Positions 4,425 to 27,854 are shown, counted from the stretch's first letter. The stretch is 64,000 nucleotides of DNA from Escherichia coli (GCF_044324875.1 NZ_CP172185.1); one strand, 5' to 3'. Notes: generated by a model from the sequence alone, not told the origin. Translations and numbers: made by a program.

Positions 4425-5789
4425 TTAGTCACACTGGACTTTGATTGCCAGACCACCGCGTGAGGTTTCGCGGTATTTGGCGTTCATGTCCTTACCGGTT
4501 TCGTACATCGTTTCGATGACCTTATCCAGCGAGACGCGCGGTGCACTGGTGCGGCGCAGAGCCATCCGTGCGGCGTTAATCGCCTTCACAGAGGCAATGG
4601 CATTACGCTCAATGCACGGCACCTGAACCTGCCCTGCAACCGGGTCGCAGGTTAAACCAAGGTTGTGTTCCATGCCAATTTCCGCCGCCACGCAAACCTG
4701 TTCCGGGCTACCGCCCAGCAGTTCTGCAAGACCCGCAGCAGCCATTGAACAGGCAACACCCACTTCGCCCTGGCAACCAACTTCCGCACCGGAAATAGAG
4801 GCGTTCATTTTATACAATGCACCAATCGCGCCCGCTGCCATAACGTAACGGGTATAGATGTCCGGGCTGACCGATTCAATAAAGTGGTCATAGTAAGCCA
4901 GCACTGCCGGAACGATACCGCAGGCACCGTTGGTTGGCGCAGTTACCACACGACCACCGGCGGCGTTTTCTTCGTTAACTGCCAGCGCAAACATGTTTAC
5001 CCAGTCAATGACATTCATCGGATCGTTAGACAGTTTATCGCTGGAAACCAGCATCCGGCGCAGGGCAGACGCACGACGTGGCACGCGCAGCGGGCCTGGC
5101 AGTACACCTTCGGTGTTCATCCCGCGATCGATACATGCCTGCATGGTTTGCCAGACATGAGCGAAATACTCGTCGATCTCTTTCTTGCTGTGCAGCGCCA
5201 GTTCGTTCTGCATGGCGAGACCAGACAGCGAATAGCCGGTTTCATTACAGTACGCGAGCAGTTCGGTGGCAGATTTGAACGGATACGGCACGCTCACTTC
5301 GTTGGCGGCATCCTGACCAAAGTGTTCTTCATCGACGATAAAACCGCCGCCGATGGAATAATAAGTTTTGCTGTAGACGACTTCATCGCCATTATAGGCG
5401 TGGATTTGCATACCGTTTTCATGCAGCGGCAGGTTGCCGTTATGAAAACGCATCCCGTTGTCGCGCGGGAAATCCACTTCATGCCGTCCCTGTGCCAGCA
5501 GCAGACGTTCGCGCTCTTCTACGTCGCGAATAAAACCGGGAATACTGTCGATATCCACGGTGGCAGGTTCGTTACCTGCAAGACCCATAATAATGGCGAT
5601 ATCGGTGTGGTGGCCTTTACCCGTCAGCGACAGTGAACCATAAACGTCCACGGCAACGCGAGTAACGCTATCCAGTAAGCCTTTTTCGACCAGATCATCG
5701 ACGAACTGTTTACCCGCCTTCATAGGCCCTACGGTATGGGAAGATGAGGGACCAATCCCCACCTTAAACATGTCGAATAGACTAATCAC
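4425..5789 (-). CDS. sdaA: L-serine dehydratase 1 (iron-sulfur dependent)
   Basis: 454-aa [32 protein letters not shown]..., recognised as SdaA. Confidence 0.95.
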
Positions 5790-6554: not shown

Positions 6555-7916
6555 TTACTTCTCCAGTTGGCGTAATATCTTATTAACTTTATCAAAAGTT
6601 TCCTGATATTCCGCTTCTTCCTGGCTATCGGCGACAATTCCACCGCCCGCAGAGCAGTATATTTGTCCGTTAATGGCAGTCAGAGTGCGGATAGTAATGC
6701 TGGTATCCATGTTGCCGCAAAAGCTCAAATAGCCAATGCTGCCGCACCAGGCATTGCGTCGCTGCGGTTCCAGTTCGTCGATAATTTCCATAGCCCGTAC
6801 TTTCGGAGCCCCGGTTATTGAGCCACCAGGAAAAGCTGCGCGCAGCAGATCGCTGGTGTGTAACTGTTCTGGTAGCCGCGCCGTTATGGTGCTGACCAGA
6901 TGATGCACGGCAGGGAAAGGTTCGACCACGAACAGCTCTGGTACTTTTACCGAACCGGCTACGGCAACGCGACCGATATCATTACGCATTAAATCGACAA
7001 TCATCAGATTTTCAGCGCGATCTTTGGGGGAGTTCGCCAGTTTCTCTGCTTGTTTGCTATCTTCCTGAGGATCGGGCAGGCGTGGTAGCGTGCCTTTAAT
7101 CGGGCGGGTCTGGATTTCACTATTATCACAAAGGATAAACCGCTCTGGCGAAAGGCTTAAAATCGCGCCCTGTTCAAGGCGTAAAAAAGCGCTAAACGGC
7201 GCGCGGTTGGCCTGATTAAGCTGAAGGAATGCCTGCCATTCATCGCCAGAATAGGCCGCTTGAAAACGCTGGGCGAGATTCACCTGATAGCAATCACCAC
7301 TGTGCAGATATTCCTGTACCTGGCGAAATTTTTCGCCGTACTGCTCGCGGGTCATATTGGATTGCCAGTCGGAAGTGAGCGCGAAATCTTCCTGAGGGGA
7401 GAATTGCTGGCTTTCCAGCCAGGCCAGACGGGTATTGACATCATTATGACTCAGCAAAGAAACTGTTTGACGCTGGTGGTCAACAACCAGCGCCCAGTCG
7501 TAGATACCCACTGCCATATCAGGCAGAACGATATCTTGCTGCGCAATTTCTGGCAGTGACTCAAAACGGCGGCCCAGATCGTAGCCAAACAACCCCAGTG
7601 CGCCGCCCTGAAATGGCAAATCTTCGTTATGCGTTGGGCGAATGTCTGCGCGATCCAGCACCTGCTGGAGCACCTGTAGCGGGTCATCAGTGGTCGTTGT
7701 GCGTTTTTCGCTTTCACTAACAACGGTTTCTTTACCGAAAGTGGTTAAAGTGCAAATCGGCTCGGCGACCACAATATCAAAGCGGCTATATGGATGATCG
7801 GCATAGCCGGAGTGTAAAAGCATCGCCCACGGCAGGTGGCTTAAGCGGGAGAAATAAAATTCAGCGGCGTCCTGACGCCAGGGTAAAGTAATCACAGCGG
7901 GAGATAACGTCTTCAT
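6555..7916 (-). CDS. pabB: Aminodeoxychorismate synthase component I
   Basis: 453-aa ORF with chorismate-binding enzyme motifs (SPERF, GSITGAPK). Confidence 0.93.
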   Translation of the reverse strand: MKTLSPAVITLPWRQDAAEFYFSRLSHLPWAMLLHSGYADHPYSRFDIVVAEPICTLTTFGKETVVSESEKRTTTTDDPLQVLQQVLDRADIRPTHNEDLPFQGGALGLFGYDLGRRFESLPEIAQQDIVLPDMAVGIYDWALVVDHQRQTVSLLSHNDVNTRLAWLESQQFSPQEDFALTSDWQSNMTREQYGEKFRQVQEYLHSGDCYQVNLAQRFQAAYSGDEWQAFLQLNQANRAPFSAFLRLEQGAILSLSPERFILCDNSEIQTRPIKGTLPRLPDPQEDSKQAEKLANSPKDRAENLMIVDLMRNDIGRVAVAGSVKVPELFVVEPFPAVHHLVSTITARLPEQLHTSDLLRAAFPGGSITGAPKVRAMEIIDELEPQRRNAWCGSIGYLSFCGNMDTSITIRTLTAINGQIYCSAGGGIVADSQEEAEYQETFDKVNKILRQLEK

Positions 7917-7989
7917 CAGTCCTGACTCTACTGGCTATGTGCCGGGTAGCATGAAATAATTAGCGCCAACAATTTAGCAGGAGTTAACA

Positions 7990-8169
7990 ATGTTTGCAGG
8001 TTTACCTTCACTCACCCATGAACAGCAGCAAAAAGCCGTCGAGCGGATCCAGGAACTGATGGCACAAGGGATGAGCAGCGGCCAGGCAATCGCGTTGGTG
8101 GCAGAAGAGCTGCGTGCCAACCATTCCGGCGAGCGAATCGTGGCGCGTTTTGAGGATGAAGACGAGTAA
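7990..8169 (+). CDS. yoaH: UPF0181 small protein YoaH (59 aa)
   Basis: ATG at 7990 preceded by AGGAG; translation [59 protein letters not shown]; below the 60-aa cutoff of the ORF track. Confidence 0.8.
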
Positions 8170-14728: not shown

Positions 14729-15856
14729 TTGAATTACCAAATGATTACCACGGACGATGCGCTGGCTTCTTTGTGTGAAGCCGTCCGTGCCTTTCCGGCG
14801 ATAGCCCTGGATACTGAATTTGTTCGTACGCGCACCTATTACCCGCAACTGGGTCTAATTCAACTTTTTGATGGTGAGCATCTGGCGCTAATTGATCCTC
14901 TCGGGATCTCCGACTGGTCACCGCTGAAAGCGATCCTGCGCGATCCGTCCATCACAAAATTTCTCCATGCGGGCAGTGAAGATCTGGAAGTGTTCCTCAA
15001 TGTCTTTGGCGAATTACCACAACCCTTGATTGACACGCAAATCCTTGCTGCCTTCTGCGGACGCCCGATGTCATGGGGTTTCGCTTCCATGGTGGAAGAG
15101 TATTCCGGCGTTACGCTGGACAAGAGTGAATCGCGCACCGACTGGCTGGCCAGACCGCTGACCGAACGTCAGTGTGAATACGCAGCGGCGGATGTCTGGT
15201 ATCTGTTACCGATCACCGCAAAGCTTATGGTAGAAACGGAGGCCTCCGGCTGGCTACCTGCGGCGCTGGATGAATGCCGCCTGATGCAAATGCGTCGTCA
15301 GGAAGTCGTTGCACCGGAAGATGCCTGGCGTGATATCACCAATGCCTGGCAGTTACGCACACGCCAACTGGCCTGTCTGCAACTGTTAGCCGACTGGCGA
15401 CTGCGCAAGGCGCGGGAGCGCGATCTGGCGGTGAACTTTGTCGTGCGTGAAGAGCATTTGTGGTCGGTAGCGCGTTATATGCCGGGAAGTTTAGGCGAAC
15501 TGGACAGCCTGGGCTTATCCGGTAGCGAAATCCGCTTTCACGGTAAAACGCTGCTGGCGCTGGTGGAAAAAGCGCAGACATTGCCGGAAGAGGCCTTACC
15601 GCAGCCGATGCTTAACCTGATGGACATGCCGGGTTATCGTAAAGCGTTTAAAGCGATTAAGTCGCTGATTACTGACGTGAGCGAAACGCACAAGATCAGC
15701 GCCGAATTGCTGGCATCGCGTCGGCAAATCAACCAACTGCTGAACTGGCACTGGAAACTGAAACCGCAGAACAATTTGCCGGAGCTGATTTCCGGCTGGC
15801 GTGGTGAGCTGATGGCGGAAGCATTACACAATTTATTGCAGGAATATCCGCAGTAA
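14729..15856 (+). CDS. rnd: Ribonuclease D
   Basis: 375-aa ORF beginning at TTG 14729 (MNYQMITTDDALASL...); 3'-5' exonuclease and HRDC regions. Confidence 0.92.
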   Translation: MNYQMITTDDALASLCEAVRAFPAIALDTEFVRTRTYYPQLGLIQLFDGEHLALIDPLGISDWSPLKAILRDPSITKFLHAGSEDLEVFLNVFGELPQPLIDTQILAAFCGRPMSWGFASMVEEYSGVTLDKSESRTDWLARPLTERQCEYAAADVWYLLPITAKLMVETEASGWLPAALDECRLMQMRRQEVVAPEDAWRDITNAWQLRTRQLACLQLLADWRLRKARERDLAVNFVVREEHLWSVARYMPGSLGELDSLGLSGSEIRFHGKTLLALVEKAQTLPEEALPQPMLNLMDMPGYRKAFKAIKSLITDVSETHKISAELLASRRQINQLLNWHWKLKPQNNLPELISGWRGELMAEALHNLLQEYPQ

Positions 15857-15862
15857 AATCTT

Positions 15863-15898
15863 CCGAAGCCGGACTGGGCGTGCTCAGTCCGGCTTCGG
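15863..15898. terminator. Bidirectional-type hairpin between convergent rnd and yeaX (ccgaagccggactg / cagtccggcttcgg)
   Basis: 14-bp perfect inverted repeat seen in sequence. Confidence 0.6.
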
Positions 15899-15902
15899 CA
15901 AA

Positions 15903-16868
15903 CTACAAATCCAACACCAGGCGTTTACCTTTCGCACGCGAACAACAGATCAACATACTTTGCTGGCTGGCACGCTCTTCATCGCTAAAATACTGATCCC
16001 GATGGTCAGCTTCACCTTCCAGTATTGCCGTTTCGCAGGTTCCGCATACCCCTTCACGACATAAACATTCCACTTTCGCTGCTTTATTATTTTCAATAAC
16101 CTGCAAAATAGTCATCTCTTCCGGCACCACAAACTCTTTACCGGAACGGGCAAGCACCAGGGTAAATGCATCGCCGGTTTTGTCTTCGATAGCAAATTGC
16201 TCAAAGTGCAGCGTATCGGCGGCGATGTCCAGACGCGCAGCTTCACTTCTTACCGCTTCATTTAGCGCCTCGGGGCCACAGGTATAAACATGTGTGCCAG
16301 GTTCGATATCCGCCAATAATCGCGCTAATTCCAGTCGTGTTCCGGTTGATGAATGATGCAAATGGACTTTCTCAGCCTGCGGATGCTGGACTAGCTCATC
16401 ACGAAATGCGCAACTTTCTGGATTTCGCGTGCAGTAATGTAGCTGCCAGTCGACGTCGCTGTGTTGCAACTCTGCCATGTGCGACAGGAAAGGGGTGATA
16501 CCAATGCCGCCCGCGATAAACAGATGCTTTCTGGCCGAGGGAATTAGCGCAAACAGGTTATTAGGCGTTGAAATCGTTAACCGATCGCCCACTTTTACCT
16601 GCTGATGTAAAAAGCGTGAACCGCCGCGCGAGTTTTCTTCCAGCCGAACGGCAATCTGATAACTAGAGGTGTCATGCGGCGAGCTCAGGAGTGAATAAGC
16701 ATTGCTGTACTGGTTATCACCATCGCTCATCTGCACAATGATGTGACTTCCTCCGGTAAACGCAGGTAATGGTTTGCCATCGGTTGCCACCAGCGTGAAG
16801 CGTTTCACCTGTTCGGTAAGCGGTTCAACCTGGCTCACCTGTACTTCAAACATTTGATAGTCTGACAT
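15903..16868 (-). CDS. yeaX: Carnitine monooxygenase reductase subunit (ferredoxin-NAD reductase with 2Fe-2S domain), YeaX
   Basis: 321-aa ORF; flavin/NAD-binding region plus C-terminal 2Fe-2S ferredoxin cysteines (CREGVCGTCE). Confidence 0.9.
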   Translation of the reverse strand: MSDYQMFEVQVSQVEPLTEQVKRFTLVATDGKPLPAFTGGSHIIVQMSDGDNQYSNAYSLLSSPHDTSSYQIAVRLEENSRGGSRFLHQQVKVGDRLTISTPNNLFALIPSARKHLFIAGGIGITPFLSHMAELQHSDVDWQLHYCTRNPESCAFRDELVQHPQAEKVHLHHSSTGTRLELARLLADIEPGTHVYTCGPEALNEAVRSEAARLDIAADTLHFEQFAIEDKTGDAFTLVLARSGKEFVVPEEMTILQVIENNKAAKVECLCREGVCGTCETAILEGEADHRDQYFSDEERASQQSMLICCSRAKGKRLVLDL

Positions 16869-16923
16869 TGCTGTACTCCATCAAAAATCAGCCCAGCGGC
16901 GGAAAATACCGCCGCCGATGTCA

Positions 16924-18048
16924 TTAGTCCTTAAACACCTGCGCCAGCAGATTATGGAAATGGGCGATACCATGTTCGGAAATTCCGCTACCGCTACTGT
17001 CGGCCATGATGCGCCCCTGACCACGATAGCCACGCGATTTCAGCCCTTTCTGTACGCTTTCAACCAGACGTAAATCTTCCGGACGGAACACATCGCGATA
17101 CCATTCAATCAGCGATTTTTGCTCGTCGGTTAACTCTTCATTGGTGAAGTAAATATCGTAGTTTTGCAGGGTAGTTTCAGAATCCACCGGGAATTCATAA
17201 ATGACCGTCATCATCCCTTTGATTGGGGTGACGTTCAGCATCGTGCACGGCCACAGCCAGAAACCGTGGAATGCCGCATCCGTGCCCTCTTCGAATTTGA
17301 AAGACTGTTCTGACGGTTTGGCGAAACCGTATTGCAGCGTCCAGTTACCGTGCATGGTGTGCCAGTAACGATCAACCTGAACGGAGTCGGAGAAACCTGG
17401 ATGCGCCGGACCACAGTGATAGCACTCGAGATAGTTATCGACAATGTTCTTCCAGTTGGCAGGCGTGCGGGTGGTAAAGCGGGCCGCCAGTTTCAGATCG
17501 TGGACTTCCGGGCAGGCTTCCAGCACTTTCGCGCCCAGACCGGGTAACTGATCTTCTACGCTGGTGGCGTTAGGGTCCATGTTGATGAAGACGAATCCGG
17601 CATATTCTTCCAGACGCACCGGAACCAGTTGCGCTTTGTCGCTATCGAAATTGGCGACGTTTTCGCAGTTACGTGCATGGGCCAGGTTGCCATCGAGTTT
17701 GAATGCCCATGCGTGATACGGGCAGGTAATCACATTTTTCGCTTTCCCTTCGCCGCTCAACAACTGATGACCACGGTGCGGACACACGTTATAGAACGCG
17801 CGCAAAACCTTATCACGACCGCGTACCAGCACAATGCTTTCGCCAATGATCTCACGCGTCACATAATCATTGGCATTCGCCAGTTCGCTGCTGTGAGCGA
17901 CGCAAATCCAGCTTTTGGCGAAGACGTTCTCTTTTTCGTGTTCAAAGGCGTTCTGATCGGTATAAAAACGGGCAGGAATGGTCCACGCCTCTTGCGGGTT
18001 AGCGCAAAAATTTTCGGGTAGTACAAAGTCAGGGCTCAGATTGCTCAT
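16924..18048 (-). CDS. yeaW: Carnitine monooxygenase oxygenase subunit (Rieske 2Fe-2S), YeaW
   Basis: ORF 16924-18168; start placed at MSNLSPDFVLPEN... to give 374 aa and avoid overlap with yeaV; Rieske motif CPHRGHQ...CPYHAW present. Confidence 0.9.
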   Translation of the reverse strand: MSNLSPDFVLPENFCANPQEAWTIPARFYTDQNAFEHEKENVFAKSWICVAHSSELANANDYVTREIIGESIVLVRGRDKVLRAFYNVCPHRGHQLLSGEGKAKNVITCPYHAWAFKLDGNLAHARNCENVANFDSDKAQLVPVRLEEYAGFVFINMDPNATSVEDQLPGLGAKVLEACPEVHDLKLAARFTTRTPANWKNIVDNYLECYHCGPAHPGFSDSVQVDRYWHTMHGNWTLQYGFAKPSEQSFKFEEGTDAAFHGFWLWPCTMLNVTPIKGMMTVIYEFPVDSETTLQNYDIYFTNEELTDEQKSLIEWYRDVFRPEDLRLVESVQKGLKSRGYRGQGRIMADSSGSGISEHGIAHFHNLLAQVFKD

Positions 18049-18079
18049 AGGGATACCTTTATCGTTAGGATGATGGCGC

Positions 18080-19690
18080 TCAGTTGTCGCCTTTGAATAC
18101 GGTTCCCGCAGGGAGCACTGGCGTTTTTTCCAGGACTTCAACCGGTGTCTGCGGGAGATAATGTTCAACTTGATGAGCCGGAATGTCGGCGTAATCCTGT
18201 TTCAGCCAGCGAATAAATCCGCCGACTTTCACCAGTAAAATGACGAGGAACGGAAGGGCTGTGAGTACGACGGTGGTTTTCATCGTTTCCAGCGACGCGC
18301 CAGTGAAAAGAATTGAAAGCGGGATCAGGGTAATTACCACGCACCAGAAAAGACGCAGCCCACGGTCAGGATCGTCACCTTCCTGGAGATTACGCGTACT
18401 GGTTGCCGCCATGGTGTAGGCCACCGCATCCATATGCGAGGCAAGGAAAATAATCATCACGCCCAGGTATGCGGCGAGGAACAATTTACCGGCTGGCAAC
18501 GACATCAGAACTTGCTGCACAGCTGTCTCGCCGCCCAGTGTTTCCAGCACCTGTGGGACGTTGATTACACCATTGATAAACTGGTGAATGGCATAGCTTT
18601 CCATTACGCCGAAGAAGAACCAGCAACCGACGGTGCTGCCGAGGATCAGTCCCCAGATAACTTCTTTAATCTTACGACCGCGGGAAACGCGGGTGACAAA
18701 CATTGCTACGCCAGGCGTGTATGAGATCCACCACAGCCAGTAGAAAACGGTCCAGTTGCGGGTAAATGAACCATCGCCAAGCGGATCGGTGAATAAGCTC
18801 ATTTGCAGGAAGTTTTGCGTGGTCAGGCCGATGGCATTGATGATGCTGTTGGTAATAAATTCGGTTGGACCGACAATCAGCACCAGTAATGGCAGCAGGA
18901 ACGCGCCCCAGCCAACCATTTTGCTCAGACGTTGCAAACCGTTGTTGATACCAATCCACGAGCTTAGGCAAAAAATGCCGCCGGAAAGCAGTATCACAAA
19001 TGCCTGCACGGTGAAGTTATCGGGTAAACCGGTCAGCGCGGAAAGCCCACGAGTAAAGGTTGCTGCGGTAACAACAAGGGAAATGGTCAGCGCACCGACA
19101 GTGGCGATCAGGAACATCAAATCGACCAGTTTTCCCCACGGGCCTTGCGGGCGAACGCCGGTAATCGCGGCAATAATGCCGGAAAGGCTCAGACCTTTGT
19201 TTTTCCGCACATGAAAGTGATAAGCCATGATTAATGAGGCCAGCGTATAAGTTGCCCAGGCGCTGATGCCCCAGTGGAAGAAGGAGTAAGGGACGCTAAA
19301 TTCGAGTGCCTGTTGTGAACGCGGTGCGATATTTAATCCAGGTGTTTGATAATAATAGGCCCATTCAGCAACCCCCCAATAAAGCGTAGAAGAACCTAAA
19401 CCGGCACAAATAAACATAAACAGCCAGGAGAGCGTGCTGTATTCCGGTTTTCCTTCGCCAAGACGAATATTGCCGTATTTACTGGTGGCTAAATAAATCA
19501 CCAGTCCCATTGCCAGCAAAACCAATACCTGTACGGCGGAACCTAACGTACGCGTAACAAAAGTGTATATAGCGTTGGCCGCGTCGGCCGATTGTTGTGG
19601 GAAAAGGCTTAATGCAGCTGCGATGAAAAGAATGGCCACCAGGCTGATGCTTATCAACGGCACATCTTTTTTCTTAACATTGCTCATCAT
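18080..19690 (-). CDS. yeaV: BCCT-family transporter YeaV (betaine/carnitine/choline type)
   Basis: 536-aa ORF, multi-pass membrane protein; the N-terminal region resembles the CaiT N-terminus so the long ORF is kept; a shorter TTG-initiated form (481 aa) is possible. Confidence 0.85.
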
Positions 19691-19892
19691 GAGTCATCTC
19701 CTGGGCATAAAAGCCCGTCTCTGGCTTTTGCCAGTTGTAATTATTTGCAGGGTATGAGTTGTATGTTGTGTTTAACAAATTTATTATTTACATGTTACAT
19801 AAATTAAACAATTAAGAATACGGAAAGCCATAAAACACGAAACGGAAACAATAAAAGGTGAAATGACGCAGGTTATTTACTGCAAAGAACGA

Positions 19893-19920
19893 ATAAAAAA
19901 ACCGCGTCAGTGACGCGGTT
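19893..19920 (-). terminator. Rho-independent terminator of dmlA (hairpin accgcgtcagtgacgcggt with T-run on the minus strand)
   Basis: Stem-loop with flanking A7 on the plus strand, directly 3' of the dmlA stop. Confidence 0.6.
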
Positions 19921-19939
19921 CAAATAAACTGGTTTGACC

Positions 19940-21025
19940 TTAACGCAAAATAATTTTGCAAATCGCGTCGGCAACCTGTGGCGTGGTGGCATTGCCTTTC
20001 ATATCAGGTGTTTTCGGCCCGTGAGCAATCACTTCTTCAATCGCGGCCAGAATACCGTTATGCGCTTGCTGGAAACGCTCATCGCCATTGCCGAGAAAAT
20101 CGAGCATCATTGCACCAGCCCAAATTGTGGCGATAGGGTTAGCAATGTTTTTCCCGTAGATATCCGGCGCGGAACCGTGGACTGGCTCGAAGAGCGACGG
20201 GAAAGTGCGTTCCGGATTCAGGTTGGCGGATGGGGCAATGCCAATGGTGCCGGTGCAGGCCGGGCCAAGATCGGAAAGGATATCGCCAAACAAATTGGAC
20301 GCCACTACCACATCGAAGCGTTCCGGCTGCATCACAAAACGTGCGCAAAGAATGTCAATATGCTGCTTGTCCCAGCGGATCTCCGGGTAATTCTCAGCCA
20401 TTGCTTCCACTCGCTCATCCCAGTACGGCATGCTGATGGCTAAACCGTTCGATTTAGTGGCAGAAGTTAGCGTCTTACGTGGGCGGCTTTGCGCAAGTTC
20501 AAAGGCATAGCGCAAAATGCGATCGACACCACGACGCGTAAATACCGATTCCTGAATGACGACTTCATGCTCTGTACCTTCATTCACTCTGCCGCCGAGC
20601 GAGGAATATTCGCCTTCGGTGTTTTCCCTGACCACGTAAAAATCGATGTCGCCAGGCTGTTTTCCCGCCAGCGGGCAGGGAACGCCAGGAAAGAGACGAA
20701 CCGGGCGCAGGTTGACGTACTGGTCGAATTCACGACGAAATTTCAGCAGCGAACCCCACAACGAAATATGGTCCGGAACGGTATCCGGCCAGCCGACGGC
20801 ACCAAAATAGATGGCGTCGAAACGGCTAAGTTGCTCATGCCAGTCGTCCGGCATCATTTTACCGTGATGGCTGTAATACTCGCAGCTCGCCCACTCCACT
20901 TGCTCAAAACTCAAGGCGAAGCCCCAGCGCTCAGCGGCAGCCTGTAACACGCGAATCCCTTCAGGAAGGACTTCTTTGCCAATCCCGTCTCCCGGGATCG
21001 CAGCAATACGCATCGTTTTCATCAT
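19940..21025 (-). CDS. dmlA: D-malate dehydrogenase (decarboxylating)
   Basis: 361-aa ORF of the isocitrate/isopropylmalate dehydrogenase family (MMKTMRIAAIPGDGIGKEV...). Confidence 0.93.
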   Translation of the reverse strand: MMKTMRIAAIPGDGIGKEVLPEGIRVLQAAAERWGFALSFEQVEWASCEYYSHHGKMMPDDWHEQLSRFDAIYFGAVGWPDTVPDHISLWGSLLKFRREFDQYVNLRPVRLFPGVPCPLAGKQPGDIDFYVVRENTEGEYSSLGGRVNEGTEHEVVIQESVFTRRGVDRILRYAFELAQSRPRKTLTSATKSNGLAISMPYWDERVEAMAENYPEIRWDKQHIDILCARFVMQPERFDVVVASNLFGDILSDLGPACTGTIGIAPSANLNPERTFPSLFEPVHGSAPDIYGKNIANPIATIWAGAMMLDFLGNGDERFQQAHNGILAAIEEVIAHGPKTPDMKGNATTPQVADAICKIILR

Positions 21026-21127
21026 TGGGTTCTCACTTCCTGACCATCAAAATTGACAATACCCTCATCCTATAATTGACTGAAAAGGAATTAATCCCCG
21101 TAACTGGTGAAACATAAAACACGAATC

Positions 21128-22051
21128 ATGAATAATTTACCGCTGCTGAACGATTTGCGCGTCTTTATGCTGGTAGCTCGCCGGGCTGGTTTTGCCGCCG
21201 TGGCGGAAGAACTGGGCGTTTCACCGGCGTTCGTCAGCAAGCGCATCGCCTTGCTGGAGCAAACGCTAAACGTGGTGTTGTTACACCGCACCACCCGCCG
21301 CGTCACCATTACCGAAGAAGGAGAGCGGATTTATGAATGGGCGCAGCGGATTTTGCAGGATGTCGGTCAAATGATGGACGAACTTTCTGACGTGCGTCAG
21401 GTGCCGCAGGGGATGCTGCGTATTATCAGCAGCTTTGGTTTTGGACGACAGGTAGTGGCTCCGGCGTTATCAGCGCTGGTGAAGGCGTATCCGCAACTGG
21501 AATTACGTTTTGATGTGGAAGACCGGTTGGTCGATTTGGTCAATGAAGGTGTCGATCTCGATATTCGCATTGGCGATGATATCGCCCCTAATTTAATCGC
21601 CCGCAAACTGGCGACTAATTACCGCATTCTCTGCGCGTCGCCGGAATTTATTGCGCAACATGGCGCGCCGAAACATTTAACCGATCTTTCTGCATTGCCG
21701 TGCCTGGTCATTAAAGAGCGCGATCATCCTTTTGGTGTCTGGCAATTACGCAATAAAGAAGGCCACCATGCGATTAAAGTTACCGGCCCACTGTCGTCTA
21801 ATCATGGAGAAATTGTCCATCAGTGGTGTCTCGATGGGCAGGGGATTGCTCTGCGCTCCTGGTGGGATGTTAGCGAAAACATTGCCAGTGGTCATTTAGT
21901 ACAAGTGCTACCGGAATATTACCAGCCAGCGAACGTCTGGGCCGTTTATGTTTCAAGGCTGGCGACGTCAGCGAAAGTGCGGATAACGGTAGAATTTTTA
22001 CGCCAGTATTTTGCCGAGCACTACCCGAATTTTTCACTGGAGCATGCCTGA
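21128..22051 (+). CDS. dmlR: LysR-family transcriptional regulator DmlR (YeaT)
   Basis: ORF 21107-22051; start placed at MNNLPLLNDLRVF... to give 307 aa; LysR HTH N-terminus; divergent from dmlA. Confidence 0.9.
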   Translation: MNNLPLLNDLRVFMLVARRAGFAAVAEELGVSPAFVSKRIALLEQTLNVVLLHRTTRRVTITEEGERIYEWAQRILQDVGQMMDELSDVRQVPQGMLRIISSFGFGRQVVAPALSALVKAYPQLELRFDVEDRLVDLVNEGVDLDIRIGDDIAPNLIARKLATNYRILCASPEFIAQHGAPKHLTDLSALPCLVIKERDHPFGVWQLRNKEGHHAIKVTGPLSSNHGEIVHQWCLDGQGIALRSWWDVSENIASGHLVQVLPEYYQPANVWAVYVSRLATSAKVRITVEFLRQYFAEHYPNFSLEHA

Positions 22052-22108
22052 TTAATGATTCAATTATCGGGTTGATATCGGGTTAAAACCTGATTTTCTC
22101 CTTTCTAA

Positions 22109-22816
<708 letters not shown>

Positions 22817-22823
22817 TACTTTC

Positions 22824-22843
22824 AGCCCGCGTTGTCGCGGGCT
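22824..22843 (+). terminator. Possible terminator hairpin after leuE (agcccgcg ttgt cgcgggct)
   Basis: 8-bp inverted repeat seen in sequence; weak T tract. Confidence 0.35.
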
Positions 22844-22898
22844 TCCCATCTGTAATCCTCCCTGATTCTTCTCTGATATGGTGCTAAAAAGTAACCAA

Positions 22899-22922
22899 TA
22901 AATGGTATTTAAAATGCAAATT
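22899..22922 (+). promoter_or_regulatory. yeaR-yoaG promoter region with putative NsrR operator (aaatggtatttaaaatgcaaatta)
   Basis: AT-rich imperfect palindrome about 70 bp upstream of the yeaR ATG; yeaR-yoaG is a known NsrR/NarL-regulated operon; site assignment is an inference. Confidence 0.4.
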
Positions 22923-22988
22923 ATCAGGCGTACCCTGAAACGGCTGGAATAAACCATTTTCAGCGCATTCACCGAAGGAGGGAAAAGG

Positions 22989-23046
22989 ATGCTGCAAATC
23001 CCACAGAATTATATTCATACGCGCTCAACGCCTTTCTGGAATAAAC
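22989..23046 (+). pseudogene. yeaR: yeaR 5' fragment (codons 1-19), interrupted by the IS66-family insertion
   Basis: ATG 22989 with GGAGG RBS; MLQIPQNYIHTRSTPFWNK then the frame runs into the IS; the remainder of yeaR resumes in frame at 25496. Confidence 0.85.
23039..23046. repeat. Target-site duplication GAATAAAC (left copy) of the IS66-family insertion
   Basis: Identical 8-mer flanks both IS ends (23039-23046 and 25489-25496). Confidence 0.85.
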
Positions 23047-23083
23047 GTAAGCGTACAGCGAGGGCCGTATTGACGGGGATGTG

Positions 23084-24622
23084 TTATTCAGCTGGCAGTG
23101 CTATGCGCCACGGAAGCAGTTCGCTGACCCGGTTGACCGGCCAGTCTGCTATGACGCCAAGCACATGGCGAAGGTAGCTTTCTGGATCCACGTCATTCAG
23201 TTTGCACGTCCCTATCAGGCTGTACAGTAGCGCTCCCCGCTCACCACCATGGCCAGAGCCGAAGAACAGGAAGTTTTTACGACCCAGACTTACCGCCCGC
23301 AGGGCATTTTCAGCGATGTTGTTGTCGATTTCCACCCAGCCATCGTTCGCATAGTACGTCAGTGCCGGCCACTGGTTAAGTGCGTACGCGAACGCCTTCG
23401 CCAACTCTGAGTGTCGCGACAGGGTCTTCATCTTTTCACGCAACCAGCTTTCCAGGGATTTCAACAGCGGTTTCGTTTTTCGCTGACGTTCAGCAAGCCG
23501 CTGCTCTGCCGGCATTCCCCTTATATCCGCCTCTATGGCGTACAACTGACCGATCTGCTCCAGGGCTTCTTCCGTCAGTGCTGACGGGATGCGGACGTGC
23601 ACATCGTGGATCTTTCGGCGGGCATGAGCCCAGCAGGCAGCTTCCGTTATCCCACCATTGCGATACAGCTCGTTGAACCCGGCGTACGCATCCGCTTGCA
23701 GCACACCGCTGAAGCAAGCAAGATGAGTCTGCGGATGGATGCCTTTTCTGTCCGGGCTGTAAGCGAACCACACTGCAGGTGCCAACGCTGACCCGGCATT
23801 GCGGTCATCACGAACATACGCCCACAACCGCCCGGTCTTCGTCTTCTTATTACCCGGCATCAGTACCTGGACCGGGGTATCATCGGCATGGAGTTTGCCG
23901 TCAGTCATGACATAGCCATGAAGCGCCTCTTCCAGCGGAGACAGCAGCCGGCAGCATGCATCCACCCAGCCCGACAGCAGTGAACGGCTCAGCTCCACAC
24001 CTTGCCGGCCGTATATTTCTGACTGGCGATACAGCGGGGTGTGCTCTGCATACTTCGAGGTCAGCACGCGGGCCAGCAGCCCCGGTCCGGCGATACCCCG
24101 CTCGATGGGCCGCGAAGGTGCAGGTGCCTGCACGATGGCATCGCACTGAGTACAGGCATGTTTTTCCCGTACCGTCCGGATAACCCGGAAGGCGCTACGC
24201 ATCAACTCCAGCTGTTCGGCGGTATCCTCGCCCAGATAGCTCAGTGAACCGCCGCAGTTCGGGCAGCACGGCGCCGCAGGCAACAGTCGCTTTTCGTCAC
24301 GGGGTAGTGATTCAGGGAACGGCTTACGGATGCGGGTCTGACGCAACGGACGCTGTACTGCCGGGTCATACACCCTACCAGTCAGCGTATCGCTCTCTTT
24401 CTGAAGCTGGTTCAGATCGGCTTCCATTTGTGCGATACGGCGGGAGACTTTTTCGGAACGACTGCCGAAGTTCATCCGGCGGAGTTTATCCAGCTGCGCC
24501 TGCAGATGGTCTATTTCGCGCTCCCGGTTGCTCAGCTTTTCCTGCAGGGCGTGGATCAGCGCTTCCTGTTCGGCCAGGCGCTGTTTCAGCAGGAAGATGT
24601 CGTCAGAAGAGATGTCGTTCAT
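23084..24622 (-). CDS. IS66-family transposase TnpC (orf3)
   Basis: 512-aa ORF with N-terminal coiled-coil/leucine zipper, zinc-finger-like CxxC pair and DDE region typical of IS66 TnpC. Confidence 0.9.
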
Positions 24623-24671
24623 AAGCCCGTATTTTACCGGGCTTATTCTGTGACAACCAGGATAAAGAGAT

Positions 24672-25019
24672 TTACAGCATGGTCAGGGAGGTCAGCAGCC
24701 GCTTAGGCTGTCGCCAGTCGATACCTTCCAGCAGCATCGCCAGCTGCGCCTGTGTAAGGAACACTTTGCCATCACGGGCTGACGGCCAGGCGAAGCGCCC
24801 ACGCTCCAGCCGTTTGGTCAGGAGGCACAGTCCGTCACCGGTGGACCACAGCAGTTTAACCTGACTGCCGCTGCGGCCCCGGAAAATGAAAACATGGCCG
24901 GACATGGGATCGTCTTTCAGCGCCGTCTGTACTTTCGCAGCCAGGCCGTTGAAGCCATTTCTCATATCGGTGATACCGGCAACCAGCCAAATTTTGGTCC
25001 CGGAAGGTAAAGGGATCAT
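24672..25019 (-). CDS. IS66-family accessory protein TnpB (orf2)
   Basis: 115-aa [30 protein letters not shown]...; start overlaps the tnpA stop (ATGA) as is typical. Confidence 0.88.
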
Positions 25020-25417
25020 CGCTTCAGTTCCTGTATCAGCAGAGTCAGGAGCTTTTCGCTGACATTGCCATTGAAGCGGAGCGTCCCGTGCCGGAACGTT
25101 ACCTCACAGCTGATACTGAGGGTTTCCGGGTCCTCTGCGAGCGATTCTGGCTGTTCGGCAGCTGCATCGAGAGTCACAGGAAGTAGCTGGGGGCTCTCTG
25201 AAGAAGGTAATAGCAGCTTTCCCTCGCGCCATTGTTGTCGCCATTTGAACAACAGATTGGCGTTAATGCCATTTTCAAGAGCAAGTTTTGAGATGGATAT
25301 CCCGGGTTCACAGGAGGCAGCAACGAGCTGCTGTTTAAATTCGGGAGGATAATTAGGGCAGCCTTTTCGCCTGCCGGGAGTCACATTTTTCTGCATATCT
25401 GACACTTTGGTTCCCAC
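25016..25417 (-). CDS. IS66-family accessory protein TnpA (orf1)
   Basis: 133-aa ORF upstream of tnpB within the same element. Confidence 0.85.
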   Translation of the reverse strand: MGTKVSDMQKNVTPGRRKGCPNYPPEFKQQLVAASCEPGISISKLALENGINANLLFKWRQQWREGKLLLPSSESPQLLPVTLDAAAEQPESLAEDPETLSISCEVTFRHGTLRFNGNVSEKLLTLLIQELKR

Positions 25418-25488
25418 TACTTATTTGGTGGACACCACTTTGTCTAATTCGTCAGATTCTGACCAGACGGTTCAGGCTGTACGCTTAC

Positions 25489-25496
25489 GAATAAAC
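25489..25496. repeat. Target-site duplication GAATAAAC (right copy) of the IS66-family insertion
   Basis: Identical to 23039-23046. Confidence 0.85.
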
Positions 25497-25798
25497 AAAC
25501 TGCGCCTGCCGGAATATTCGAACGTCATCTTGATAAAGGAACGCGCCCGGGAGTTTACCCACGCCTTTCCGTTATGCATGGGGCGGTCAAATATCTCGGC
25601 TACCCTGATGAACACAGTGCAGAGCCTGATCAAGTGATCCTTATCGAAGCGGGGCAGTTTGCGGTGTTCCCTCCAGAAAAGTGGCACAACATTGAAGCCA
25701 TGACTGACGATACTTATTTCAACATTGACTTCTTCGTTGCTCCTGAAGTCCTGATGGAAGGCGCGCAACAACGGAAAGTCATTCATAACGGGAAATGA
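25496..25798 (+). pseudogene. yeaR: yeaR 3' fragment (codons 20-119, DUF1971 protein), separated from its promoter and start by the IS
   Basis: In frame with the 5' fragment once one TSD copy and the IS are removed; translation QTAPAGIFERHLDKGTRPGVYPRLSVMHGAVKYLGYPDEH...HNGK; reconstituted length 119 aa. Confidence 0.85.
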
Positions 25799-25801
25799 AT
25801 C

Positions 25802-25984
25802 ATGGGCAAAGCAACGTATACCGTGACCGTCACCAATAACAGCAATGGCGTTTCTGTCGATTATGAAACAGAGACGCCGATGACTTTGCTGGTGCCAGAA
25901 GTGGCGGCTGAAGTGATAAAAGATCTGGTGAATACCGTGCGTTCTTATGACACGGAAAACGAACATGATGTTTGTGGTTGGTAA
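25802..25984 (+). CDS. yoaG: DUF1869 small protein YoaG (60 aa)
   Basis: ORF MGKATYTVTVTNNSNGVSVDYETETPMTLLVPEVAAEVIKDLVNTVRSYDTENEHDVCGW starting 4 bp after the yeaR stop. Confidence 0.85.
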   Translation: MGKATYTVTVTNNSNGVSVDYETETPMTLLVPEVAAEVIKDLVNTVRSYDTENEHDVCGW

Positions 25985-26131
25985 TTATCTCTGATCGTTG
26001 ATGGCGCAATTTCTGCGCCATCGCAAAAAAATCCTCCGTGATGCTCGTCACAAATCTTGCCCTCCCGATGTTGTGCTATGCTTTTTATCAGCGACTAACC
26101 CGCTAATGCAAAACAGATAAGTGAGGAAACA

Positions 26132-26380
26132 ATGGGCATTCTGTCATGGATTATTTTTGGGCTTATTGCCGGTATTCTGGCGAAGTGGATCATGCCAGGT
26201 AAAGATGGTGGTGGATTCTTTATGACTATCCTGCTGGGGATAGTCGGTGCCGTAGTCGGCGGATGGATCAGCACGCTGTTTGGCTTTGGTAAAGTCGATG
26301 GCTTCAATTTTGGCAGCTTCGTGGTTGCCGTTATTGGCGCGATTGTCGTGCTGTTTATCTACAGAAAGATTAAAAGTTAA
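26132..26380 (+). CDS. yeaQ: GlsB/YeaQ/YmgE-family small membrane stress protein
   Basis: 82-aa ORF with two hydrophobic helices (MGILSWIIFGLIAGILAKWIMPG...). Confidence 0.9.
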   Translation: MGILSWIIFGLIAGILAKWIMPGKDGGGFFMTILLGIVGAVVGGWISTLFGFGKVDGFNFGSFVVAVIGAIVVLFIYRKIKS

Positions 26381-26394
26381 CGCGTAAATTGCAC

Positions 26395-26426
26395 AAAGGC
26401 TGCACACAGGCAGCCTTTGCTATTTT
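26395..26426. terminator. Hairpin terminator between convergent yeaQ and yoaJ (aaaggctgc acacag gcagccttt, then T-rich)
   Basis: 9-bp inverted repeat plus T-rich tail seen in sequence. Confidence 0.5.
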
Positions 26427-26438
26427 CTAGATGTGACG

Positions 26439-26513
26439 TTACCACCATCCCAGCTCAGTGCCGAGTACGACAATAATAGCCACACCCATCATAATAATCG
26501 TTGTTTTTTTCAT
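26439..26513 (-). CDS. yoaJ: Small membrane protein YoaJ (24 aa)
   Basis: Minus-strand ORF MKKTTIIMMGVAIIVVLGTELGWW; start codon 2 nt after the yoaK stop. Confidence 0.75.
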   Translation of the reverse strand: MKKTTIIMMGVAIIVVLGTELGWW

Positions 26514-26515
26514 CT

Positions 26516-26614
26516 TTATGCTCCCGGGGCAGCATAGCCGCCAATAAAAAACCATGCTAAAAATACGACCGCTGTAATAAAGATTACAACCGGAAAAATA
26601 ATACCGATTCGCAT
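26516..26614 (-). CDS. yoaK: Small membrane protein YoaK (32 aa)
   Basis: Minus-strand ORF MRIGIIFPVVIFITAVVFLAWFFIGGYAAPGA. Confidence 0.75.
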   Translation of the reverse strand: MRIGIIFPVVIFITAVVFLAWFFIGGYAAPGA

Positions 26615-26646
26615 GTTATCACCAATCAAAAGGATGTGAATACGCC

Positions 26647-27672
26647 TCAGGAATGTAGCGCTGGATGCGCGACAAAAGGTGTTTTCTGTTTGTGTTTTTT
26701 CTCCTGATACATCGCGATATCGGCAGCATGCAGGGCACTGTCTGCATCGGTCGTTTCAGGATCGACTTCTACTATGCCAAGACTGGCACCGGGATAATAC
26801 AAATCAACATCACCTAAGTGATATTCTCCGCGTATTTGCTGCTGAATACGTTCTCGCAGAGACGAAATATCCGCATTCTCGTTGTTCAGTGAAACAACCA
26901 AAAACTCATCACCGCCGAGACGACCAATAACTTCGCCATTTTGCTGGAGCGTATTAAGGCGCTCGCCAACCTGAATGAGGAACAAATCACCACTATTATG
27001 ACCAAAACGATCGTTGATTAATTTGAAGTTATCCAGATCGATAAACGCGATCATTATCTTATGGTTAAGATGTCGGGCGAGAGAAAACAGCGTCGTCAGG
27101 TTTTCAAAAATCGCCCGCCGATTCGGTAGCCCGGTTAACGAGTCGGTATACGATTGCGCAATCAGCGCAGCATTGGCTTCGCGCAGCTGTTCAACCAGTG
27201 CCTCTTTTTGAATATATTGTGCAATCAGTCCGGCGAATAACTGTAAAACCTGTTCCGCGCGTTCACTCCACTGGCGCTTCTCACTACTGGCGGCGCAAAG
27301 CGTGCCATAGAATGATCCATCCGGTAAGTGAATTGGCGTGCTCAGAAATGTGGTGATGCCAAGATTGCGTGCCGCAATACAGTCGCCCCAACGGTCAGGG
27401 ACTTCATCGCTGAAAAAGCAGTTTTCATCAATGGCGCGTTTGCATAACGAGTAATCCCACGAGACGGTAAAATTCTCCGGGATGTGCATTTTCTGGCTGT
27501 TACGGGCAAACATAATATGCTGCAGGCGCGCTTCGACATCCACTTTGGTCAGGTAGGTTGATTCCATATCAGTGACCATTTCCAGCATCTCCAGAAGCTG
27601 TCGGACCAGACTTTCCAGTGACTGTTCTTTGGCAAGGGATTGTGAGACGCGGGCGATAATCTGATCTGACAC
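26647..27672 (-). CDS. dgcP: Diguanylate cyclase DgcP (YeaP), GAF plus GGDEF domains
   Basis: ORF 26647-27801; start assigned to GTG at 27672 (MSDQIIARVSQ...) to give 341 aa; GGDEF motif (RLGGDEFLVV) present. Confidence 0.88.
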   Translation of the reverse strand: MSDQIIARVSQSLAKEQSLESLVRQLLEMLEMVTDMESTYLTKVDVEARLQHIMFARNSQKMHIPENFTVSWDYSLCKRAIDENCFFSDEVPDRWGDCIAARNLGITTFLSTPIHLPDGSFYGTLCAASSEKRQWSERAEQVLQLFAGLIAQYIQKEALVEQLREANAALIAQSYTDSLTGLPNRRAIFENLTTLFSLARHLNHKIMIAFIDLDNFKLINDRFGHNSGDLFLIQVGERLNTLQQNGEVIGRLGGDEFLVVSLNNENADISSLRERIQQQIRGEYHLGDVDLYYPGASLGIVEVDPETTDADSALHAADIAMYQEKKHKQKTPFVAHPALHS

Positions 27673-27854
27673 GAAACAACTCCAGGATACGGCGGGTAAA
27701 TGCTGATTATTTAATCTTTGCAGGCATGATAAAACATCATCAACAAAGATGAAACAAGGCGTAATATGATTTGAGTGAATGTAATAAAAATAGTGCTGCA
27801 AAACAAAACGATACCGCGATACTCTAAGTCTGGATAAATATGTGAGATCAATAA

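Follow-up and report, generated by a model that had tools for sequence, protein, structure and literature searches.

At which codon does the transporter gene yeaV of Escherichia coli begin, and do yeaX, yeaW and yeaV belong to one cluster with the adjacent D-malate genes dmlA and dmlR? Both questions are raised by a locus at positions 15903-22051 (6149 bp) of a stretch of E. coli DNA of 64,000 nucleotides (nt) from NZ_CP172185.1, here called the window, to which all positions refer unless another sequence is named. The original prediction had described a yeaXWV carnitine oxygenase module lying next to a dmlR/dmlA D-malate module, and had left the start of yeaV ambiguous between an open reading frame (ORF) of 536 amino acids (aa) and a form of 481 aa initiated at TTG. 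The region is very probably the E. coli version of a conserved cluster for the aerobic catabolism of carnitine, with yeaV in its ancestral, full-length form. As a carnitine/D-malate cluster of E. coli the locus is already well known, and neither its genes nor their chemistry are new.

The start of yeaV

The gene yeaV lies on the minus strand at 18080-19690 and, read from the ATG at 19690, encodes a full-length BCCT-family transporter of 536 aa; on comparative grounds this ATG is the start, and the question can be regarded as settled. A Shine-Dalgarno sequence, AGGAG (19698-19702, minus strand), stands 7 nt upstream of the ATG, and both the ATG and an (A/G)GGAG element about 7 nt upstream of it are aligned in seven genera, represented by E. 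coli, Klebsiella, Citrobacter, E. lignolyticus, Serratia, Shimwellia and Pseudomonas. Since these two elements stay aligned while codon 2 varies among the same genera (ATG, TTG, CAG or TCC), the first ATG is fixed as the start. From residue 1 onward YeaV can be aligned with orthologues of 532-548 aa in Klebsiella, Citrobacter/Salmonella, E. lignolyticus, Shimwellia, Serratia, Yersinia, Xenorhabdus, Pseudomonas, Aeromonas, Cupriavidus and Helicobacter. Over residues 1-55 YeaV shares 39-47 of the 55 positions with Klebsiella, Citrobacter and E. lignolyticus, and this part of the protein is still alignable in Pseudomonas, Aeromonas, Cupriavidus and Helicobacter. The pairwise ratio of nonsynonymous to synonymous substitution (dN/dS) for codons 2-55 is 0.05-0.19, at dS values of 1.1-2.2, and for the rest of the gene it is 0.04-0.05. 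These codons are thus under purifying selection, and are predicted to encode the first transmembrane helix (TM1) and the start of the second, which hydropathy places at residues of about 11-31 and 48-70, respectively.

The protein as a whole fits the same picture. The original prediction had placed a BCCT transporter gene beside yeaW, and the match of YeaV to the Pfam BCCT profile, of 485 positions, indeed runs from 3 to 485 (E = 1.9e-121). It is 100% identical to a protein cluster of 10327 member sequences that bears the NCBI name YeaV, and in strain AF40 RefSeq annotates the same coding sequence of 1611 bp. Solved BCCT structures (DddT, CaiT, a trimethylamine (TMA) transporter, BetP and others) align from YeaV residues 9-33, and only the 536-aa form has the complete BCCT core of 12 helices, with TM1 as well as the Trp-rich signature of TM8 and its invariant Trp residues.

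The competing start is the in-frame TTG at codon 56 (19523-19525, minus strand), from which the 481-aa protein of the K-12 annotation is read. That the YeaV of the window is made from this internal TTG, the 165 nt upstream of it serving as an untranslated leader, is extremely improbable. TTG is a legal start codon and this one is used by the K-12 reference annotation, but the choice in K-12 was forced by a deletion of 224 bp, described below. The TTG has no usable Shine-Dalgarno sequence, the sole AGG lying 1-2 nt before it; and because TM2 is predicted to span residues of about 48-70, codon 56 falls inside it, so that the product would begin within TM2 and lack TM1. The 55 codons upstream are conserved as protein across orders, with the low dN/dS already given, and the NCBI pipeline PGAP classes the truncated form among pseudogenes. 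The TTG start is in effect refuted already by these comparative data. With the upstream bases present in the window, conserved across genera and under purifying selection, the 536-aa form is the gene, and the ambiguity of the original prediction falls away.

A derived deletion in laboratory strains

The 481-aa form has its origin in a particular allele. When K-12 was aligned with the window and with strain AF40, it was found to lack window positions 19563-19786 (minus strand), a 224-bp segment missing both from K-12 MG1655 and from BL21(DE3). This segment holds the yeaV ribosome-binding site and ATG together with 96 bp of leader (or promoter) and about 43 codons from the beginning of the gene; downstream of window position 19562 the K-12 gene is identical to that of the window. 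K-12 yeaV (b1801), of 1446 bp and 481 aa, begins at the TTG inside TM2, an in-frame TAA lying just upstream of the deletion junction and the TTG being the first start codon after it. K-12 has lost the ribosome-binding site and the ATG, with the TTG as the first start left to it, and its 481-aa annotation is therefore the remnant of a 5'-truncated gene. PGAP calls the K-12-type allele a pseudogene, 'missing N-terminus', in strain 720632 and in BL21(DE3). It follows that the 481-aa YeaV is not an alternative product of the window sequence, the deletion having removed leader, ribosome-binding site, ATG and TM1. All the outgroups carry the full N-terminus of YeaV, so the K-12 state is a derived deletion. 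On inspection for microhomology its ends share at most one T, and no repeat-mediated mechanism is evident from the sequence at these ends.

Allele counts were taken throughout from a set of 5426 complete E. coli genomes, 5423 of which are matched by the 6149-bp locus (best match 99.3% identity over 100% of its length). The 224-bp segment is present in 2930 genomes, for example O157:H7 and KO11FL. The exact K-12 junction occurs in 1438, among them MG1655, C600, DH1, a B strain and BL21(DE3), and the whole cluster has been lost from about 1057, for example CREC7837. Genomes of this last kind, about a fifth of the set, retain only some 330 bp of dmlA and dmlR fragments between rnd and leuE; in CREC7837 the remnant occupies 5001-5329 of the extracted locus. 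In genomes of this kind dmlA, yeaV, yeaW, yeaX and most of dmlR have gone in one deletion.

A second, independent 5' deletion of yeaV was considered for HS-02 (NZ_CP172818.1) and rejected, the alignment being garbled and ridden with homopolymers in the manner of a typical assembly error. The 5' region of yeaV in this genome (2480-2720 of the extracted locus) contains long runs of A and T, is called a pseudogene by PGAP, and looks like an error of assembly or polishing.

Gene content of the locus

For the locus as a whole, ORFs, Pfam domains and RefSeq names agree with the original prediction, the RefSeq names being likewise yeaX, yeaW, yeaV, dmlA and dmlR. Besides yeaV, the minus strand carries yeaX (cntB; 15903-16868, 321 aa), for the NADH-dependent reductase of carnitine monooxygenase; yeaW (cntA; 16924-18048, 374 aa), for its Rieske-type oxygenase subunit; and dmlA (19940-21025, 361 aa), for a decarboxylating D-malate/tartrate/3-isopropylmalate dehydrogenase. 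The gene dmlR (21128-22051, plus strand, 307 aa, position 22051 being the end of the stop codon) encodes a LysR-type transcriptional regulator. The dmlA product has the Pfam Iso_dh domain and matches the tartrate dehydrogenase/decarboxylase of PDB 3FLK (E = 1.5e-194). DmlR has an N-terminal HTH_1 domain and a LysR_substrate domain, and its gene, with a RefSeq coding sequence of 924 bp, is divergent from dmlA. All five ORFs have the lengths of their RefSeq counterparts, and the locus is therefore intact by the standard of E. coli.

Two longer ORFs were set aside. A 414-aa ORF for yeaW starting at TTG (16924-18168) is an over-extension into the 3' end of yeaV, the annotated start being the ATG at 18048; and a 314-aa ORF for dmlR starting at GTG (21107-22051) begins 21 nt ahead of the annotated ATG at 21128.

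One cluster rather than two modules

The five genes are better described together than as two neighbours. A divergent LysR gene followed by Iso_dh-BCCT-Rieske-Aldedh-reductase genes is the order found in Klebsiella pneumoniae, in a genome of the Pseudomonas putida group, and in Citrobacter/Salmonella, Serratia and E. lignolyticus, in clusters whose flanking genes are mutually unrelated. The window has the same arrangement, with the LysR gene divergent from that for a decarboxylating D-malate dehydrogenase, followed by those for BCCT, CntA and CntB. Moreover, dmlRA and yeaVWX have been lost together in the roughly 1057 genomes mentioned above. The operon of Acinetobacter baumannii consists of carR and mdh-bcct(Aci01347)-hyd-cntA-msadh-cntB, and the five genes that it shares with E. 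coli are in the same order and orientation. The identities between the two species are 45% for CarR, 72% for the D-malate dehydrogenase, 56% for the BCCT protein, 72% for CntA and 52% for CntB (PMC11353897). Thus dmlR/dmlA and yeaXWV are one conserved cluster, homologous to the Acinetobacter carnitine operon, and the two adjacent modules of the original prediction merge into one. This reinterpretation has already been published (PMC11353897, 2024). The genes are those of the E. coli DmlR/DmlA D-malate system, and only the context differs, D-malate being a product of carnitine breakdown in Acinetobacter.

What E. coli lacks is equally informative. The A. baumannii operon includes hyd, for an acylcarnitine hydrolase, and msadh, for a malic semialdehyde dehydrogenase, both of which are absent from E. 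coli; their absence was reported in 2024, together with the observation that E. coli GabD shares 62% identity with the enzyme that is missing (PMC11353897). The enterobacterial and Pseudomonas clusters keep msadh, and in five clusters no hyd-like gene was found between the BCCT and Rieske genes. In the relatives the Aldedh protein has 482-483 aa and its gene lies between those for the Rieske protein and the reductase; the Shimwellia cluster has the same order without it, as in E. coli. Here yeaW and yeaX are separated by a spacer of only 55 bp, and the gene for malic semialdehyde dehydrogenase is not present between cntA and cntB. Aligned with Klebsiella, this spacer matches first the end of cntA and next the stretch between aldh and cntB, whose hairpin and ribosome-binding site are covered too; the terminator-like, G+C-rich hairpin with a run of T (16893-16918, minus strand) is part of the alignment. 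The homology of the two spacers marks the site of the missing gene, and the parsimonious reading is that E. coli lost the dehydrogenase gene cleanly. The original prediction of an intact locus therefore stands as far as the five full-length ORFs and other E. coli are concerned, and fails by reference to the ancestral six-gene cluster, from which the Aldedh gene is missing.

The Klebsiella Aldedh matches E. coli GabD (PDB 3JZ4) and PDB 8S33 about equally well. The latter entry, with 12 chains, fits a crystal of the A. baumannii malic semialdehyde dehydrogenase, and presumably is that enzyme. The code 8S33 is mentioned once in the 2024 study (PMC11353897).

The Klebsiella spacer between the Iso_dh and BCCT genes (7497-8000 of the extracted locus) is some 250 bp longer than that of E. 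coli. The extra length consists of tandem G+C-rich repeats (GCCCGGGTAAGGCGCAGCCGCTACCCGGCAAAAAACGGCACAGCAAGTA...) after the Iso_dh stop codon, which resemble elements of the repetitive extragenic palindromic (REP) type.

YeaW, YeaX and the proposed pathway

The assignment of the oxygenase is firm. YeaW contains Pfam Rieske (E = 9.7e-24) and Ring_hydroxyl_A domains and matches the structure of A. baumannii CntA (PDB 6Y8J) with E = 9e-197. The Rieske motif noticed in the original prediction (CPHRGHQ...CPYHAW) is present, and all the metal ligands are conserved by comparison with 6Y8J: C89, H91, C109 and H112 of YeaW align with C86, H88, C106 and H109 of CntA, and the mononuclear iron ligands H211, H216 and D325 with H208, H213 and D323. 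The bridging residue E208 corresponds to CntA E205, a Glu that replaces the usual Asp. (Residue numbers for CntA are those of the literature, plus the offset of the 20-residue tag in 6Y8J.) The gene yeaX, 55 bp downstream of yeaW, encodes a single chain in which Pfam recognises FAD_binding_6 (residues 9-103), NAD_binding_1 (117-207) and a C-terminal plant-type 2Fe-2S domain, Fer2 (240-313). The match of residues 9-321 to phthalate dioxygenase reductase (PDB 2PIA, E = 7.6e-57) covers the full length, and by sequence YeaX is a reductase of that type with a 2Fe-2S domain, as had been supposed. The match of YeaW to CntA, with which the RefSeq names concur, likewise upholds assignment to the system that converts carnitine to TMA. 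In vitro, E. coli YeaW and YeaX split carnitine to yield TMA along with malic semialdehyde and are highly active (PMC9508527). From the behaviour of these assayed enzymes, the YeaW of the window would be expected to cleave L-carnitine.

By analogy with A. baumannii, in which L-carnitine is converted to TMA and malic semialdehyde, and the latter via D-malate to pyruvate and CO2 by a last enzyme orthologous to DmlA (PMC11353897), the following pathway may be proposed. YeaV (536 aa, a BCCT protein of 12 transmembrane helices) would import L-carnitine and related quaternary amines, as its orthology with Aci01347 suggests. Electrons from NADH would pass through the flavin and plant-type 2Fe-2S centre of YeaX to the two metal sites of YeaW, Rieske cluster and mononuclear iron, and YeaW would oxygenate carnitine to give TMA and malic semialdehyde. 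In relatives the aldehyde dehydrogenase encoded between cntA and cntB would oxidise malic semialdehyde to D-malate; since E. coli has no dedicated dehydrogenase gene, this step would fall to a paralogue such as GabD. DmlA, a known activity of which is the conversion of D-malate to pyruvate and CO2, would complete the sequence by this reaction. DmlR would control dmlA and probably also, to judge from a shared sequence box, a promoter ahead of yeaV.

Comparison of YeaV with CaiT

YeaV belongs to the same BCCT fold family as the L-carnitine/gamma-butyrobetaine antiporter CaiT (PDB 2WSX, 3HFX; E = 8e-70), and the residues of the quaternary-ammonium Trp box of CaiT (W142, W147, W323 and W324) are conserved in it. 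The CaiT-like N-terminus attributed to YeaV holds for topology, and does not hold for sequence: identity is 27% overall, and only 8 of the 55 N-terminal residues are the same as in CaiT. At the positions of R262 and M331 of CaiT, which we take to be the residues that replace ion sites and make that protein ion-independent, YeaV and each of the 11 aligned orthologues have Val, so that none of them has this antiporter signature. It is accordingly more likely that YeaV would act as a coupled importer, like Acinetobacter Aci01347, than as an antiporter of the CaiT type.

Intergenic elements and regulation

The spacer between dmlA and yeaV, of 249 bp, is conserved among enterobacteria. Just after the dmlA stop codon it contains a hairpin and T-run resembling an intrinsic terminator (19899-19921, minus strand), which is kept in Citrobacter and E. 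lignolyticus. An Rfam match to anti-hemB over this terminator was discarded as sub-threshold (21.6 bits, with a gathering score of 49.5), and a scan of 15800-22200 at E <= 1 gave no known riboswitch or leader.

Further into the spacer, upstream of yeaV, lies the sequence TTCGTGTTTTATG (19829-19841, minus strand), a second copy of which (21113-21125, minus strand) lies in the divergent promoter region of dmlR and dmlA, directly against the start codon of dmlR. The window has no third exact copy of the 13-mer, and at least two matches were obtained in 2 of 100 shuffles. In six enterobacterial clusters its core, YGTGTTTTAT, is kept at the corresponding place between the Iso_dh and BCCT genes (with one mismatch in Shimwellia). 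Klebsiella, Serratia and E. lignolyticus have the core at both sites, and in Citrobacter the copy near lysR differs by one mismatch. We infer that the box is a shared candidate operator for DmlR, with a putative DmlR-dependent promoter ahead of yeaVWX. By eye, a possible promoter of the form TTGTTT-N17-AATAAT can be seen at about 19812-19784, and the K-12 deletion, which spares the box, begins inside its putative -10 element and removes the sequence from about that point onward.

Activity in vivo

It is tempting to suggest, as a tentative proposal that could well prove wrong, that the three states of the locus decide whether carnitine is converted to TMA in vivo; that the negative results with laboratory strains are an artefact; and that strains with full-length yeaV express yeaVWX via DmlR and pass the semialdehyde through GabD or Sad, and then DmlA, to pyruvate. 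BL21, B and K12, the strains that have given negative results in vivo, all carry truncated yeaV. In the one screen of yeaV for substrates, Keio and ASKA constructs were employed (PMC10971958); these derive from K-12 and so carry the 481-aa remnant. One review table also names K-12 as making TMA from carnitine, an entry that was rejected here: the study cited used K-12 DNA only as a standard for quantitative PCR, and the entry is therefore not evidence of activity in vivo.

Several observations weigh against a functional full-length cluster. For the yeaV allele of the window, initiation at the ATG is predicted from comparison and expression is putative, and its cluster offers no dedicated gene for the aldehyde dehydrogenase step. 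A strong terminator-like hairpin stands between dmlA and yeaV, and a scan with the sigma-70 consensus gave no promoter in the dmlA-yeaV spacer (and fewer sites overall than in shuffled sequences), so that the yeaV promoter and its dependence on DmlR are proposed from conservation only. About 46% of the complete E. coli genomes have a damaged or lost cluster, which suggests weak selection on it within the species. To our knowledge, growth of E. coli on carnitine has never been demonstrated. BL21 extracts had no carnitine monooxygenase activity; BL21, B and K12 did not grow on carnitine; and the authors of that work, to whom public expression data revealed no condition in which cntA was substantially transcribed, raised the question of some other role for the E. 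coli cluster (PMC11353897).

Two other explanations must be weighed with these points in mind. It might be that in E. coli dmlRA and yeaVWX function independently of each other and that their adjacency is an evolutionary relic, dmlRA serving for use of D-malate or tartrate and as a back-up to the leucine pathway, and yeaVWX merely releasing TMA. The absent linking dehydrogenase, the hairpin behind dmlA, the description of DmlA as a generalist enzyme and the failure of BL21, B and K12 to grow on carnitine would all be in keeping with this. We nevertheless think it unlikely: the gene order is kept in six other genera with different flanks, the two promoter regions share a 13-mer that is conserved among enterobacteria, and about a fifth of genomes have lost both halves together, while GabD might stand in for the missing enzyme and failure to grow is recorded only for strains with truncated yeaV. 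Alternatively, the cluster could be a decaying remnant in E. coli, of which even the full-length copy is neither expressed nor used. The 1438 genomes with the 5' deletion and the 1057 or so with total loss speak for such decay, as does the lack of substantial cntA transcription in the public data. It is the less easily reconciled with the full length of all five ORFs in the window, with a YeaV identical to that of 10327 database sequences, and with the high activity in vitro of the cloned E. coli enzymes; there is also purifying selection by comparison with other genera, a measure that does not extend to selection within E. coli. Decay of this kind therefore seems quite improbable for the full-length allele.

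Neighbouring insertion sequences

Beyond the cluster, an element of the IS66 family (23084-25417, minus strand) has been inserted between leuE and the yeaR side. Its ORFs, all on the minus strand, are a 512-aa transposase (23084-24622) and, upstream, small TnpB-like and TnpA-like ORFs (24672-25019 and 25016-25417). Positions 22700-27700 of the window are contiguous in none of the complete E. coli RefSeq genomes (0 records with at least 80% coverage), and the flanks of the insertion match leuE...dgcP at 99.7-99.8%. In BL21(DE3), yeaR beside leuE is split by the IS4-like element IS421 (23967-25675 of the extracted locus), an insertion sequence unlike that of the window, though in the corresponding neighbourhood.

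Significance

Carnitine-derived TMA is linked to cardiovascular disease. In the human gut cntA/yeaW is reported to be carried mainly by E. coli, and about 98% of cntA amplicons were closest to sequences of this species (PMC5433236). If the three states of the locus do decide the conversion of carnitine in vivo, the published lack of activity, transcription and growth would be a consequence of testing only K-12, B and BL21. Surveys of cntA/yeaW in the gut would also overcount functional E. coli by about one third of the carriers (1438/4368), on the assumption that gut populations share the allele frequencies of the complete genomes. The 481-aa 'YeaV' of K-12 databases is a remnant and not the protein, and studies of the transporter or the pathway should use a full-length yeaV allele such as that of the window. 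The lead of some value is thus the allele polymorphism, with its likely effect on TMA formation from carnitine in vivo.

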